NCBI GenBank assembly: GCA_963765495.1
Contig: CAVXWP010000001.1
Coordinates: 704,001 to 768,000 of the forward strand
Direction of reading: 5' to 3'
Source: Blastocatellia bacterium
Lineage (GTDB): Bacteria > Acidobacteriota > Blastocatellia > UBA7656
DNA length: 64,000 nucleotides
Part shown: positions 1 through 5,945 of the stretch, one piece after another
Layout: each line of letters begins with the position of its first letter
Numbering within the stretch: the stretch's first letter is position 1
Program-made: the position numbers and the translations under genes
Notes under the pieces: model-generated
Databases searched by the model: none
Told to the model about the DNA's origin: nothing
Seen by the model: only the letters and a program-made list of their open reading frames with translations

Positions 1-74
1 GCGCGAAGCATAGCGCGATTAGGCGTGCGCTCTAACCCTTCGGTGATGGTCTTACTTCGGGCATTATCACTCAT
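1..74 (-). CDS. ilvD: Dihydroxy-acid dehydratase, 5' end only (runs off the window)
   Basis: Manual translation from ATG at 74 gives MSDNARSKTITEGLERTPNRAMLR, the typical IlvD N-terminus (R-x-P-x-RAMLR). A GAGG RBS lies upstream. Not in the ORF track. Confidence 0.75.
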   Translation of the reverse strand, partial: MSDNARSKTITEGLERTPNRAMLR

Positions 75-222: not shown

Positions 223-981
223 CTATCCGCACAGGACTGAGCCGCCGTTGACGTTGAGCACTTCGCCCGTAGTGTGGCGGGCAAGGTCCGAGGCCAGAAA
301 CAGGATCGGCCCGGCGATGTCGTCGGCTGTGGCCACGCGCCGGAGCGGGATGGCTGAGAGGATGCCTGCGATTTCGCGCCGGTTGTGCAGAGGTTCCGCA
401 GACATATCGGTGTCAACCCAGCCGGGCGCGACCGAGTTCACCCTTATTCCAAACGGTCCCAGTTCGCTTGCGAGCGATTTCGTGAGAGAGATTATCCCGC
501 CCTTTGACGCGGCATAGTGCGAATGAAAAGCTTCGCCTCGCTGGCCCGCTGTCGAAGAGACCGTGATGATGCTGCCCGACCGCTGTCGCTTCATCACCGT
601 CGCGGCGAAGTGGCAGCAGGCATATACGCCCTTCAGGTTTATATCAATCGTCTCTTGCCATCCTTGCTCGTCGAGTTCATCTATGGCGCTGCCGGTCCAG
701 ACGCCCGCGTTTGCGACTACTATATCAACGCGGTCAAACTCTGAAAGCGTCTGGTCGAATAAGGCTCGCACATCCTCGAAGCGCGAAACATCCGCCTGCA
801 TGGTGATCGCTCGGACGCCAAGCAAGCGAGCCTGTTCTGCTATGGCTTCGGCTTCGGCTTCGTGCTTGAAGTAATTCAAGACCAGAGACGCCCCGCACTC
901 GGCGAACCTTATGGCCGTAGCCGCGCCGATGCCCCGCGACGCGCCCGTTATCAATGCGACTCTACCGCTCAAATCTATCAT
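223..981 (-). CDS. Short-chain dehydrogenase/reductase, FabG-like
   Basis: TGASRGIG Rossmann motif, VANAG, YAASK catalytic motif, VNSVAPG. Confidence 0.9.
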   Translation of the reverse strand: MIDLSGRVALITGASRGIGAATAIRFAECGASLVLNYFKHEAEAEAIAEQARLLGVRAITMQADVSRFEDVRALFDQTLSEFDRVDIVVANAGVWTGSAIDELDEQGWQETIDINLKGVYACCHFAATVMKRQRSGSIITVSSTAGQRGEAFHSHYAASKGGIISLTKSLASELGPFGIRVNSVAPGWVDTDMSAEPLHNRREIAGILSAIPLRRVATADDIAGPILFLASDLARHTTGEVLNVNGGSVLCG

Positions 982-1053: not shown

Positions 1054-1329
1054 TTAACCGCCCGCGATTGCCGGGACTATCGAAACCTCTGCGCCTTCGG
1101 GCACTCGCGTTGCCAGATTGTCAAGAAAGCGCACGTCTTCGCCGTCAATATAGATGTTTATGAAGCGGCGCAATTCGCCCCCCTCATCGCACACACGGGA
1201 TTGGAAACCCGGATAGCGCGCCTCAAGTTGAGTGATCAAGTCTCTCACGGTCCCGGTTTCGACTTCGACCTCTTCGAGGTCGCCTGTGAGCTTGCGTAGC
1301 GGTGTCGGTATGATTAGCTTGAGTGACAT
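1054..1329 (-). CDS. MoaD/ThiS-family ubiquitin-like sulfur-carrier protein (CysO/MetO-like)
   Basis: 91 aa with IPTPLR...[14 protein letters not shown] and a C-terminal AIAGG diglycine. GGAG RBS upstream. Confidence 0.9.
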
Positions 1330-1464: not shown

Positions 1465-2703
1465 TCAGGCAGTGGCCGCAAAGCCCGAGATCACGCTTTC
1501 GAATTGAGCGAGGCGAGGCTCGATTACTACGGGCGGCCCAAGCTCGACGGCCTCCTGCGTCTTCAGCCCGTTGCCTGTGATGGCGATGACCGTCACTTCA
1601 TCGGGATTGATGCGCCCCTGCTCGATCAACTTTATGGTCACGGCGACCGTAACGCCCCCGGCGGTTTCCGTGAATATGCCTTCTGTCTCGGCCAGTAATC
1701 GGATGCCCGATCTGATCTCGTCATCGGAAACATCTTCGGCCCAGCCGCCGCTTTCGCTGATTACACCCGCAGCATAGTAACCATCCGCCGGGTTCCCAAT
1801 CGCGAGCGATTTTGCAATCGTCGCAGGCTTGACGGGGCGGATGTCGCGCGATTTGCGCTTGACGGCATCGGCTATGGGGTTGCACCCTGTTGCCTGCGCG
1901 CCGAAAATGCGCGTCTTTACTTCTTCTTCGAGAAGCCCGAGCCGTTCAAGCTCTTTCAGCCCCTTGTGAATCTTTGTGATGAGAGACCCCCCTGCCATCG
2001 GCACTACTACGTTTGCCGGGGCGCGCCAGCCTAGCTGCTCCGCTATCTCATAACCGAAGGTCTTGGAGCCTTCGCCGTAAAAAGGTCTGAGATTGACGTT
2101 GACAAATCCCCAGGGATGCCGCTCCGAAATCTGGGTGCAGAGACGGTTCACATCGTCGTAATTGCCGCGCACGGCCACGACTCGCGCTCCATAAATCGAG
2201 GTCGCGGTGATCTTGCTCTTTTCCAGATTTTCAGGGATGAGGATGTATGCGGGCAGACCGGCGGCGGCGGCGTTTGCTGCTACCGAGTTTGCCAGATTGC
2301 CGGTCGAAGCGCAGCCGACCGCTTCGAGCTTGAACTCCTTAGCTTTATTTATAGCGACTGCCGTGACCCGATCTTTGAAGGAAAGAGTGGGAGAGTTGAC
2401 GCTGTCGTTTTTGATGTAGAGACGCGAAAGGCCAAGCCGTTTAGCGAGGCGGTCGGCCCGCACGAGCGGAGTCCCGCCGCTTGTCTGGCCTACGACGGGT
2501 TCTGAGTCCAGAGGCAAAAGCTCGCGGTATCGCCAGAGTGAGGGCGGGCGCGAATAGATGACTTTGCGTGTCAGCGCGCGTCCAATCGCTTCGTAGTCGT
2601 AATCAATTTCCAGTGGCGCGAAACAATCCGCGCATCCGGCTGAAGGTTCTTTCGGGTAGCTGCGCCCGCATTCCCGGCATCTCAATCCGTTGACAAAACT
2701 CAT
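1465..2703 (-). CDS. thrC: Threonine synthase-like PLP enzyme (possibly a sulfur-carrier-dependent O-phosphohomoserine sulfhydrylase)
   Basis: N-terminal CxxC..CxxC, PLP lysine motif PTLSFKDR, ASTGN, ITGNGLK. Confidence 0.85.
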   Translation of the reverse strand: MSFVNGLRCRECGRSYPKEPSAGCADCFAPLEIDYDYEAIGRALTRKVIYSRPPSLWRYRELLPLDSEPVVGQTSGGTPLVRADRLAKRLGLSRLYIKNDSVNSPTLSFKDRVTAVAINKAKEFKLEAVGCASTGNLANSVAANAAAAGLPAYILIPENLEKSKITATSIYGARVVAVRGNYDDVNRLCTQISERHPWGFVNVNLRPFYGEGSKTFGYEIAEQLGWRAPANVVVPMAGGSLITKIHKGLKELERLGLLEEEVKTRIFGAQATGCNPIADAVKRKSRDIRPVKPATIAKSLAIGNPADGYYAAGVISESGGWAEDVSDDEIRSGIRLLAETEGIFTETAGGVTVAVTIKLIEQGRINPDEVTVIAITGNGLKTQEAVELGPPVVIEPRLAQFESVISGFAATA

Positions 2704-2797
2704 CTGGTTTCCCTCCTGTCTTAAGAGCCGCGCGGTTTCAAACGCCGCGCGGGTTAGGGCTACAGGTTAGAGCTACAGCCACGGGCAGCAGAGCAAA

Positions 2798-2830
2798 AGA
2801 AAAAGCCCCGCGCCAAACTAGCGCGGGGCC
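2798..2830 (-). terminator. Intrinsic terminator, expression platform of the proximal riboswitch
   Basis: Minus strand reads GCCCCGCGC-TAGTTTG-GCGCGGGGC followed by TTTTTCTTTT. Confidence 0.85.
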
Positions 2831-2846
2831 TGCTTTCAGTCTCCGG

Positions 2847-2896
2847 GCTGTTTAGCAGTTTTTTTCGTGGAGCAAGTAGCCTTAAATCGCCACGTA
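2847..2896 (-). ncRNA. SAM-II (SAM_alpha)-type riboswitch aptamer, proximal copy
   Basis: Minus strand reads CGTGG-CGATTT-AAGGCTAC-TTGC-T-CCACG-AAAAAAACT-GCTAAA. This matches the SAM-II pattern: P1 CGUGG/CCACG, GAUUU, UUGC, A-rich linker, GCUAAA. Confidence 0.8.
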
Positions 2897-2912
2897 TCTG
2901 ATTAAGAAAGAA

Positions 2913-2945
2913 CAAAAGCCCCGCGCTAAACCAGCGCAGGGCTTT
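2913..2945 (-). terminator. Intrinsic terminator, expression platform of the distal riboswitch
   Basis: Minus strand reads AAAGCCCTGCGCT-GGTTT-AGCGCGGGGCTTT-TGTTCTTT. Confidence 0.85.
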
Positions 2946-2958
2946 CGAAAAACTCTCT

Positions 2959-3010
2959 CGCGGTTTAGCACATTTTTAACGTGGAGCAATTTGCATTAAA
3001 TCACCACGTC
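2959..3010 (-). ncRNA. SAM-II (SAM_alpha)-type riboswitch aptamer, distal copy
   Basis: Minus strand reads ACGTGG-TGATTT-AATGCAAA-TTGC-T-CCACGT-TAAAAATGT-GCTAAA. Confidence 0.85.
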
Positions 3011-3025
3011 CAGCTTCGAAGTCTC

Positions 3026-3054
3026 AGACTACACCTCTCGACTGACGATGTCAA
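3026..3054 (-). promoter_or_regulatory. Sigma70-type promoter for the riboswitch-thrC-moaD transcript
   Basis: TTGACA-17 nt-TAGTCT, placing the predicted TSS about 10 nt before the first aptamer. Confidence 0.75.
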
Positions 3055-3059
3055 CAAGC

Positions 3060-5945
3060 TCACTGATTTTTTTGCGATTTTGTTTCTGCGCCCGCAAGCG
3101 CATCAAACCGTCGCTTTGTTTCATTTGACCAGCCGGGGATCAACTCTGTAACTGTGCCTTTGTCGTCTACGATAAACGACATCGGGACCGACACCTCTTC
3201 CGTAGCGTACAGCTTTTCGATAGCCGGAACTCCGCCTACATAAACCGGATAGCTGACGCCTTTCTGCGCGAGGAACCCCTTGATGTCAACACCCGACTCC
3301 GTATCGACGCTCAATCCGATCAGATCGATGCCGCGCGCCGTAAAGCGCGAGCGCAGCTTTTCAAGCTCGGGCATTTCGCGGGCGCAGGGCGCGCACCACG
3401 TAGCCCATACGTTGATGAGCAGACGGCGACCGGGGCGCAGTTGTTTGCGTAGAGTGGTCGCCCGCCCGTTCGCAGTCTTCAAAGCCAGATCGGGCGCGGG
3501 GCGGCCCACGGCTATTTTTAGTCCTCGGGCGAAGCTTTCAACTCGCGTCAATGGATCGGGCAGGTTCGCGCGTTTTAAGGCAAACGGTTCGGCGGTTCCC
3601 GCGCCCTCGCGCAGCAACAGGTTTGAGCCTGCTTTCGTTTCTGCCTCGAATCGTTCGGTCTTGCCGTTTGGCCATGTGACTTCTATCCACTCGGCGCGCT
3701 CGTCTCGGCCTAACCCGAAAAGCAATCGCGGGTCGTTTTGCGAGATGAAGCCTGAGCCGCCGCTCTTGATCTTTGTCAGCGTACCGGCTGATGTCTTCAC
3801 GCGCACCACTGCGCCGTAAGCATCGCGCCCTACATCCTTGCCGCCTTCGAGCGATATTCGCAAATAGTTGTTTGCCTGCCCTACGTTATTGCGAAAGAGC
3901 AGGTGCGAATCACCCTGAATGGTTGTGATGAAAACGTCGAGGTCCCCGTCATTATCGAAATCGGCGAAGACGCCTGCGCGACCGTCGCTGATCGAATCTA
4001 TGCCGGAGACGCCTGATACATCCAGGAATTTTTTTGTGCCGAGGTTGAGATAAAGCGGATCTCGTTCGTACCCGCTGAAGGAGAATCCCTGCTCGGAAAT
4101 CAATTGATTCTGATCATTGCGGAGCGCGCCTTTTTCTTTGCTTGAGTCATTTGTCTGCGTCACGACCTGACGCCAGAAATGACTTCAGGTGTCTTTCATC
4201 GACTTGCCCGAGATAAACCCGTTTGGCGAGTACAAATCTTCCCACCCGTCATTATCGAAATCAATAAAGCCGCCGCCCCAGGCCCACCCGCCTGAAAATC
4301 CGCCCACTTCCGATGTTACGTCGCGGTACTTTCCGTTGCCGAGATTTTCATAGAGGTTGTTGCCCGCGGCCAGTTTCTTCAGCACGTTGTCTTTCGAGCT
4401 CGAATTCGGAAAGAGCCGCGACAGAATGCGATTGCCCGCGGTCGAAGACATGTTTGTGGCGTGAAGATCGAGAAGACCGTCGTTGTTGTAATCCCCGAAT
4501 GCCACCCCCATGCCGTTGCCGGGGTCGAGCACTCCCCGCTCTTTCGCCTCGTCAACAAAGTGGTCGCCTTTGTTTATGTACATGGCTTTTTCGCCGAAGT
4601 CGTTTGCCACGTAAAGGTCGAGGCGACCGTCGCCGTTTGCGTCAAAGAACTCAGCCGCGTAACTCCACCGGCGGTCGTCAACCCCCCACTTCGCGGCCTC
4701 TTCGCGGAAGCGGCCTTCGCCCTGATTTATAAAGAGCAGATTGGGCGTGCCGTTCGTAGCGCGAAACCAGGAATCCGGCGTCACCTGTCCGTAACGGTTA
4801 TAACAGGATACGTAAATATCGGGGCGACCGTCGCCGTTCACGTCTCCGGCCACGGCGCTGAAGCCTATGCCCTGTATCGAAACCCCCGCTTCGAGCGAGA
4901 CATCCGAGAATTCGAGCTTGCCGTCGGGGACCATTCGATTTTCCAGGAGGATTTGCGAACCAACCGTCGAGATGAATATGTCTTCGTCACCGTCGCCGTC
5001 ATAGTCGAGCACAAGCGGCGCGACCCCGGTGGCCAGGCTCTTTACGCCCGCTTCGGTCGAAGCATCTCGGAAACGCCCGTGACCGTCATTCAAATACAGG
5101 TAATTTCGATCAGGCGCGGTCACAAACAGATCCATCCACCCGTCGCCGTTGAAATCAGAGGCCGCCGCTCCGTGCCAGATGAAGCCGTTGTTGCCCGCCG
5201 AGCCGTAAGAGGGAAGCGTGGCTGCTACGCCTGCGGGCGCGCTCACCTCAGAGAAAACATCCGTAGTTGCGACCATCGAATCGAGGCTCGCAAGTTCGAA
5301 TGAATCAAACTGCCATCTTCCTTTTGCCGCGCGTCGGGCGTTTACGTATGTGACGCCCCGCGCCCATTCGCGCTGGCCCTCGGTGTTGCGGCCTATCACA
5401 TAAAACGCGAGGCGGGCGCGACCCACAGGATTTGCCTCCTCAGGCGAATTCTTTGCATCAGCCGAGGCGGGCGGATTGAAATTAGCCTCTTTGACCTTGA
5501 AGCGAACATCTTCGATTTCGGCGAAGTGATCAAGAAATCCCGACCAGTCTTTAAGGAAACTTTCTTTCGTCATCGTGCGAAGCGCGGGTTTGCCCTCTTC
5601 GCCGTTTACTCCCCAGTCGCGCATGGCTATCCACTTGACCTGATTCTTGACAGGCAACGGCCGGGAAGGGAACGGGGCAGCCTGTAGCTTGTCGGAGAAG
5701 AATTCCGCAGTGCGCTCCGCGTTGCGATCCCGCGTTGCGACCGACAGTTCGAGCATATCGTTGGCGAGCGATTCGGATAAATCCTCGACCTGCTCAAGGC
5801 GTGTGATCTCGCCTGCGGGTGGCGATTTCTGTTCCTGCGCGCTTGCTTTGCGAGTGACCACTGCCGCAAGACAGAGCGAAAACGCGAGGCAAAGACACAA
5901 CAGCGCCCTGCCTGAACGCGATGAGAGCAACTTTAACAACTCCAT
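3060..5945 (-). CDS. Secreted FG-GAP(VCBS)/CRTAC1-ASPIC-UnbV protein with C-terminal TlpA thioredoxin domain; candidate selenoprotein read through the UGA at 4185-4187 (961 aa, Sec587)
   Basis: ORFs 4185..5945 and 3060..4163 are in the same frame, separated only by TGA plus 7 sense codons (KDT*SHFWRQVVTQ). The product has a signal peptide, many DxNGDGxxD repeats on both sides of the UGA, an ASPIC/UnbV region (GSGFISQNDPRLLFGLG) and WATWCAPC. Confidence 0.75.
4145..4184 (-). promoter_or_regulatory. Bacterial SECIS-like stem-loop
   Basis: Directly after the UGA: AGUCAUUU-CUG-GCGUCA-GGUCG-UGACGC-AGAC-AAAUGACU. It has an 8-bp lower stem, a 6-bp apical stem starting 11 nt after the UGA, and a loop beginning with GG. 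Confidence 0.75.

Follow-up and report, generated by a model that had tools for sequence, protein, structure and literature searches.

This report addresses a leader on the minus strand of a stretch of 64,000 nucleotides (nt), referred to here as the window, from a Blastocatellia bacterium of the phylum Acidobacteriota. Read in the direction of its gene, the leader carries a promoter-like site, aptamer 1, terminator 1, aptamer 2 and terminator 2, followed by a gene of the ThrC family. Both aptamers belong to one class and lie in one leader, on the same strand. The pair is real and well conserved among relatives, and the leader is very probably a series of two SAM-II-class riboswitches for S-adenosylmethionine (SAM), each a kinetic transcriptional OFF switch, in front of a probable homocysteine operon of the MetM/MetO type. 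A sequence-only reading of this DNA had proposed two SAM-II-type pseudoknot aptamers, each complete and with its own terminator, and both were recovered at the same minus-strand positions through the top match to Rfam family RF00521 (SAM_alpha), a terminator scan and covariation. The features of the leader are listed below, with scores against RF00521 and against R1, a covariance model built from our alignment A1 with P1 only, in whose seed both units are included.

3026..3054, minus strand: promoter-like site, with -35 TTGACA at 3054-3049, a 17-nt spacer and -10 TAGTCT at 3031-3026
2959..3009, minus strand: aptamer 1, distal type (RF00521 20.6 bits, E 0.022; R1 74.3 bits)
3009-3004 with 2984-2979, minus strand: aptamer 1, P1, ACGUGG with CCACGU
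3002-2998, minus strand: aptamer 1, third strand GAUUU
2995-2993 with 2961-2959, minus strand: aptamer 1, P2a, UGC with GCG
2989-2986 with 2969-2964, minus strand: aptamer 1, P2b, UUGC with GC.AA inside GCUAAA
2925..2969, minus strand: anti-terminator 1, tail GCUAAACCGCG at 2969-2959 with CGCUGGUUUAGC at 2936-2925
2904..2947, minus strand: intrinsic terminator 1, hairpin 2947-2913 of 16 pairs (9 G-C), then the U-rich tract UUUUGUUCUUUCUU to about 2904
2846..2895, minus strand: aptamer 2, proximal type (RF00521 30.2 bits, E 5.4e-5; R1 70.6 bits)
2894-2890 with 2870-2866, minus strand: aptamer 2, P1, CGUGG with CCACG
2888-2884, minus strand: aptamer 2, third strand GAUUU
2881-2879 with 2848-2846, minus strand: aptamer 2, P2a, GGC with GCC
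2875-2872 with 2856-2851, minus strand: aptamer 2, P2b, UUGC with GCUAAA
2812..2856, minus strand: anti-terminator 2, tail GCUAAACAGC at 2856-2847 with GCUAGUUUGGC at 2822-2812 (GCU-A-GUUUGGC)
2795..2831, minus strand: intrinsic terminator 2, hairpin 2831-2803 of 13 pairs (9 G-C), then UUUUUCUUUU to about 2795

Class and anatomy of the two aptamers

In an E-value-mode scan (cmscan) of positions 2650-3150, RF00521 is the top Rfam family for both units, with 30.2 bits at 2831-2903 and 20.6 bits at 2945-3017, and its alignment pairs off GAUUU, CUUGC, CCACG, the A-rich L3 and GCUAAA with the consensus. The sequence-only reading had named covariance models as its check. In that check SAM_alpha ranked first, and both scores lie under the RF00521 gathering cut-off of 36 bits. 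The stronger argument comes from relatives. Among 20 loci of relatives, four distal units exceed the gathering score (42.9, 41.4, 39.4 and 37.0 bits), and these four align column for column with the units of the window (alignments A1 and A2); therefore, the window aptamers are filed here as compact, sub-threshold members of SAM-II. With RF00521, the alpha-proteobacterial metA motif, they share the H-type pseudoknot, P1, the third strand GAUUU, the P2b pairing of UUGC with GC(U)AAA, the association with methionine genes and the terminator mode, and P2a covaries here. Unlike that family, the window copies have a shorter L1-P2a segment and a shorter L3 loop, and the host is an acidobacterium. A leader position before genes of methionine/SAM metabolism holds for the window pair, as well as for a third copy in the same genome. 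We take GAUUU, UUGC and GCUAAA to be the ligand site, with a U opposite the ligand.

Other families were considered and rejected. The long-loop SAM-II family RF01726 reaches only 18.5 and 16.7 bits, its cut-off being 44. SAM-V (RF01826) is absent among the 36 matches at E <= 10, and both expression platforms are terminators, with the ribosome-binding site (RBS) about 80 nt past terminator 2. Sub-threshold matches of ctRNA_p42d, F6, Thr_leader, Leu_leader and ClpQY_promoter fall over the terminators and were set aside as look-alikes of a hairpin plus U-run.

The structure is conserved over 91 distinct aligned units, 88 of them from relatives and the other three being the window pair and the third genomic copy. 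The ligand-site columns GAUUU, UUGC and GCUAAA are invariant, and P2b, pairing UUGC with GC.AA, is formed in 91/91 units with no variation. P1 is 94.1% paired, its pair 5-37 being CG in 72 units, AU in 14, UA in 2, UG in 2 and unpaired in 1. Three pairs of P2a are well supported by compensatory changes, such as GGC:GCC against CAAC:GUUG and CAGC:GCUG. Pair 22-57 is CG in 76 units, UG in 13 and UA in 1; pair 21-58 is GC in 73, AU in 10, GU in 4 and another combination in 4; pair 20-59 is GC in 46, AU in 15, GU in 5, UG in 1 and unpaired in 15. Overall, 90.4% of paired cells are complementary, against 26-43% with slid partners, and the covariation score is reached by none of 500 shuffles, a control that overstates significance because the alignments contain related sequences. 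The fold predicted from these alignments is an H-type pseudoknot, in which the loop of the P1 hairpin pairs with the 3' tail through P2a and P2b.

Each aptamer is followed by a terminator whose 5'-arm end, loop and 3'-arm start are complementary to the tail of that aptamer. These complementarities, quoted in the sequence-only reading, are present as it described them, and its proposal of an anti-terminator on the GCUAAA tail of each unit is supported by the folds. When the nascent platform is 46-50 nt long, the anti-terminator is the structure of minimum free energy (MFE), at -19.1 kcal/mol in unit 1 and -20.3 kcal/mol in unit 2. The tail duplex of unit 1 is worth -17.4 kcal/mol against -9.0 for shuffled tails, and that of unit 2 is worth -13.0 against -9.6 kcal/mol. 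The terminator scan returned three terminator-like sites in the region, compared with 1.4 +/- 1.3 in shuffles.

Across relatives, the criterion for a platform was a hairpin with 7 or more pairs, 5 or more of them G-C, and then 5 or more U within 8 nt, this criterion being anchored at the last G-C pair. An earlier criterion had missed 44 of 115 units by counting U's only after RNAfold stems that extended through A-U pairs. With the anchored version, all 115 analysed units have the hairpin and U-run; two units found by regular expression, the second ones of loci L036 and L037, had been excluded beforehand for having no U-run. In these two loci the proximal aptamer (about 1345-1468) has no recognisable U-tract terminator and may use another expression platform. 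The tail complement UUYRGC lies inside the terminator of 76 of 114 distinct units. In 69 of these 76, the base that follows GCUAAA pairs with the one that precedes UUYRGC (C:G in 42, G:C in 19, U:A in 6 and wobble in 2), leaving 7 mismatches. The best duplex of the 12-nt tail spans the terminator loop in 105/114 units, with a median of -11.15 kcal/mol compared with -7.5 kcal/mol for shuffled tails. Locus L025 (1250-1371) is peculiar in that the tail of its distal unit is directly duplicated (AUGUGCUAAACCGCAAG twice) between aptamer and terminator.

The promoter that the sequence-only reading placed ahead of aptamer 1, TTGACA-17-TAGTCT, is present in the sequence, and 58 of 64 leader rows, taken from this genome and its relatives, show an equivalent site ahead of the first aptamer (regular expression TTGA[CT]-17..19-T[AG]nnnT). 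It mostly stands 12-25 nt ahead of P1 of the first aptamer. A promoter consensus scan of the leader region found no site by its criteria, because TAGTCT equals TATAAT at only 3 of 6 positions. Transcription would start near 3019, a few bases before aptamer 1. Upstream, an open reading frame (ORF) for a TlpA/redoxin-like protein ends with its stop codon at 3062-3060 on the minus strand. From U-tract 1 to P1 of unit 2 there are only about 10 nt, and between the aptamers there is no ORF and no promoter. For the leader as a whole the predicted fold has -91.7 kcal/mol (z = -4.27), and this MFE structure contains both P1 hairpins and both terminators. The roughly 80 nt from terminator 2 to the RBS hold two further small hairpins, at about 2725-2790 on the minus strand (GGCUGUAGC...CUGUAGCC and CCGCGCGG...CCGCGCGG); the beginning of this stretch is common to the close relatives L006 and L007.

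Conservation of the tandem pair

With the ThrC-like protein, 80 related loci were retrieved, labelled nearly all as metagenome genomes of Blastocatellia, Acidobacteriota or Terriglobia; the remainder were a few Nitrospinota and some oddly labelled bins. The sequence-only reading had suggested a survey of related genomes for the tandem arrangement, and the pair is widespread there. R1 gives 136 matches in the 80 loci, at least 21 of them not in the seed alignment. On the gene strand, 64/80 loci show two matches, all of them from Acidobacteriota-like metagenome genomes; a single match is seen in 7 loci and no match in 9. Of these nine, two lack upstream DNA, and most of the rest are Nitrospinota-type bins or deep acidobacterial ones. 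A distance of about 0.9-1.25 kb separates the pair from the downstream ThrC-like gene in seven loci. Locus L062 carries a third R1 match (845-896, minus strand, 59.8 bits), which lies some 300 nt upstream of its tandem pair, on the other strand and facing away from it; this unit presumably controls a divergent gene.

In an even sample of the phylum searched with stricter filters, 13 of 151 genomes have an R1 match at E <= 1e-4, and these are all 12 sampled genomes of the class of the window plus one weak match elsewhere. A tandem pair, within about 150 nt, is present in five of the 13. In each of the 12 sampled genomes of the class, R1 recovers between two and four copies. The genome of the window has exactly three copies, the third being a single aptamer with a terminator.

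Each of the two positions has its own type of unit: in 41/45 distal units column 10 is U and G stands before GCUAAA, whereas in proximal units column 10 is C in 40/40 and CU stands before GCUAAA in 37/40. The C at column 10 also occurs in single units (5/5) and in the third genomic copy. Because the types are distinct by position, the duplication is old and both copies have been kept.

SAM-II has been reported from other hosts, namely alpha-, beta- and gamma-Proteobacteria and Bacteroidetes (PMC2258182 among the sources). No paper connecting SAM-II to Acidobacteria, Acidobacteriota, Blastocatellia or Chloracidobacterium came up in a full-text literature search; the host list for the 44 tandem examples of Sherlock et al. 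(2022) lies outside this comparison. To this extent only does the earlier view of the arrangement as unusual for the lineage hold. As to the class, the same view does not stand, as Sherlock et al. (RNA Biol 19:1059, PMC9481103) describe 44 tandem SAM-II riboswitches, some with an intrinsic terminator for each aptamer, and predict pseudo-cooperative function. Their tandem SAM-II/SAM-II cases resemble the present leader in having two complete SAM-II riboswitches in one leader, in some with their own terminators, but many of the cases described there combine terminator and RBS control, whereas here both platforms are terminators. The doubled design was therefore already described. A related arrangement is that of 'Candidatus Pelagibacter ubique' (Poiata et al. 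2009, as reported in PMC9481103 and PMC6061858), where two SAM-sensing pseudoknot aptamers stand in series, the first with a terminator; in contrast to the window, its second aptamer is a translational SAM-V. The sequence-only reading also had SAM-II units often occluding the RBS, which is at odds with PMC6061858 and PMC2258182, where they are described as mostly associated with transcription terminators.

The regulated operon

Three genes follow the leader on the minus strand.

1465..2703, minus strand: ThrC-family enzyme dependent on pyridoxal phosphate (PLP), 412 residues, with ATG at 2703 and the RBS AGGAGGG at 2717-2711
1054..1329, minus strand: ThiS/MoaD/SAMP1-like protein, 91 residues, ending in ...AIAGG (Gly-Gly)
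223..981, minus strand: SDR-family oxidoreductase, 252 residues, probable last gene of the operon

The sequence-only reading called the first gene thrC. The family is right, but the gene is probably not the housekeeping one. The protein of 412 residues scores 289.6 bits against TIGR00260 and 285.8 bits against PRK08197, under the cut-off of 303 of the latter, and it is one of four ThrC-family genes in the genome above the TIGR00260 cut-off. Another of these, at locus L090, reaches 611 bits against PRK08197 and is the likely housekeeping ThrC. A sequence search of the PDB with the ThrC-like protein returned threonine synthases only, which does not separate MetM from ThrC. Gene context suggests that the protein is probably a homocysteine synthase of the MetM type rather than the housekeeping enzyme, and that the adjoining protein of 91 residues probably serves as a MetO-type sulfur carrier. 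A ThrC-fold enzyme next to a ThiS/MoaD-like carrier with a Gly-Gly end is, as annotated here, the gene context of MetM and MetO. The two genes are kept together in L068 and L073, with the 91-residue gene after the ThrC-like one.

In Streptomyces, the ThrC-like homocysteine synthase MetM and the sulfur carrier MetO use O-phospho-L-homoserine (Hasebe et al. 2024, as given in GapMind 2026, Table 2, PMC13759103, and in PMC12172450), and metM of Streptomyces albulus is described with an upstream SAM riboswitch (PMC12172450). The present operon is like that metM-metO system, as described there, in joining a ThrC-like PLP enzyme and a small sulfur carrier behind a SAM riboswitch; it is unlike it in that an SDR also belongs to the operon, and the likeness is one of gene context. 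The probable product of the operon is homocysteine, formed from O-phosphohomoserine through the MetM/MetO route, and repression by SAM would then be end-product control. The third copy of the aptamer in this genome precedes a gene matching the bifunctional homocysteine S-methyltransferase/MTHFR. At that locus (L002, contig C12), the match is split over overlapping ORFs at 1624-2463 and 2364-3071, covering profile positions 3-243 and 246-475, and the split could be a frameshift, an assembly error or real.

The SDR gene is found in two gene orders within the SAM-controlled operon, being the last gene in the window and the first after the tandem riboswitches in L068 (699-1469) and L073 (656-1477). 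These are the two loci checked among the seven with a distant pair, and in both the SDR gene lies between the riboswitches and the ThrC-like gene. The SDR of the window is 58% identical to that of L068. To our knowledge, no function in the MetM/MetO route has been assigned to an SDR.

A further paralogue of the ThrC family in the same genome (L089, contig C9; 303.4 bits to PRK08197) has a cysK-like cysteine synthase immediately before it and an SsnA-like aminohydrolase nearby, a context that suggests a second sulfur- or selenium-related use of the ThrC fold. In the spacer of 135 nt between the stop of the ThrC-like gene and the start of the ThiS-like gene, imperfect heptamer repeats resembling GATGCGT were seen by eye at about 1427-1460 on the minus strand.

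Mechanism and alternatives

An anti-terminator built on the GCUAAA tail of a complete SAM-II-type aptamer makes SAM-dependent termination, hence an OFF switch, the best reading of each unit. With SAM bound, the H-type pseudoknot would close, and the tail GCUAAAC together with the P2a strand would be held in the P2b triple helix and in P2a. With the tail sequestered, the downstream G+C-rich hairpin and U-tract would form, and the polymerase would terminate near 2910-2904 in unit 1. Without SAM, the free tail would pair with the end of the terminator 5' arm, the loop and the first bases of the 3' arm, giving the anti-terminator and read-through. Unit 2 would repeat the decision, with a stop near 2800-2795. 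Expression of the operon would then require read-through at both checkpoints, which should lower leak and steepen the response to SAM (pseudo-cooperativity).

Several findings weigh against this interpretation. At gathering thresholds, Rfam has no match in the whole 64-kb window, and with 30.2 and 20.6 bits for the window units and 24.6 bits for the third genomic copy, all three stay below the cut-off. RF00521 matches below threshold (E <= 1) are likewise present in 8 of the 14 unrelated control genomes; therefore, the raw Rfam score alone is weak proof, and the better argument is the one from relatives. The high R1 scores of the window units hold by construction because both are seed members. 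The core of P2b is invariant, which puts it beyond a test by covariation, and covariation in P1 is limited to a single pair. On the side of the terminators, the terminator replaces the anti-terminator as the MFE structure once its 3' arm is finished (-25.5 and -28.3 kcal/mol). The complete platforms are then most stable as terminators, and read-through must therefore be kinetic, as we infer and as holds for most transcriptional riboswitches. An exact UUYRGC is missing from 38/114 units. In 19 units, mostly distal ones of more distant loci, the tail duplex is weaker than -8 kcal/mol; there the tail repeats part of the terminator 3' arm, as seen by eye, and these units may have an alternative anti-terminator.

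It is conceivable, though very unlikely in our judgment, that only one unit is a working switch, the other being either a duplicate in decay or no more than a terminator serving the TlpA-like gene upstream. Seven related loci do have a single unit, some with an apparently decayed first terminator upstream (L024, for example), terminator 1 lies about 115-155 nt past the stop of the upstream ORF, and aptamer 1 has the lower RF00521 score of the two (20.6 bits). However, every base of the invariant core is kept at both positions in all 91 aligned units, terminator and anti-terminator are likewise kept at both, and the two positions hold distinct conserved types (column 10). Such long maintenance of both positions argues for function. 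Furthermore, it is the distal units that pass the Rfam cut-off in relatives, and a promoter-like site separates the upstream stop codon from aptamer 1.

The ligand is a separate question, as scores under the Rfam cut-off and loops shorter than the RF00521 consensus could also fit S-adenosylhomocysteine (SAH) or another adenosyl-sulfur compound, or binding by a protein or small RNA (sRNA). We rate this as highly improbable, since the bases aligned to the RF00521 core (GAUUU, UUGC and GCUAAA) are invariant and the regulated genes are those of methionine synthesis. In addition, PMC6061858 describes the triplex bases around the ligand of SAM-V as more than 97% conserved and the SAM-V structure as superimposing on SAM-II, with both classes telling SAM from SAH through the same triplex. 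Lastly, the terminated leader RNAs of about 110 nt and about 225 nt might be the main product and act in trans as sRNAs, with cis control secondary. A strong promoter-like site and strong terminators are present, and a SAM-II riboswitch of Sinorhizobium meliloti is said to yield an sRNA on termination (PMC9373788), but nothing computed here points to a target or a trans function, and the element always stands directly upstream of the same operon; the chance of this we hold to be slight in the extreme.

Two SAM-II-class OFF switches in series, acting on transcription, remain the preferred reading, supported here by sequence anatomy, conservation, covariation and predicted folds; ligand, termination and enzyme function are inferred. 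Beyond it lies a broader and rather doubtful proposal, taken as a whole. The two positions would be old, separately maintained paralogues, perhaps tuned to different SAM levels or folding-time windows, forming a two-threshold, near-digital gate at the branch point of threonine and methionine (O-phosphohomoserine), and the MetM/MetO route in Acidobacteria would include the SDR as a component not recognised so far.

Rfam gathering thresholds miss these switches, and methionine/SAM regulation in Blastocatellia, a large soil class, and in neighbouring groups therefore goes unannotated. The switch would mark which of the four ThrC paralogues serves methionine rather than threonine synthesis, and it flags the SDR as a candidate member of the pathway. 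The design is a further natural example of serial riboswitches for the same ligand. As that principle was already described, the gain is one of annotation and a clean model system, not of a new mechanism.

A look-up of sequencing runs for this DNA listed no RNA run, and one soil-metagenome DNA run contains 0.42 of the sampled words. Further upstream in the window (3060-5945, minus strand), the genes encode FG-GAP/ASPIC-repeat proteins, one of them fused to a TlpA/redoxin-like thioredoxin domain.

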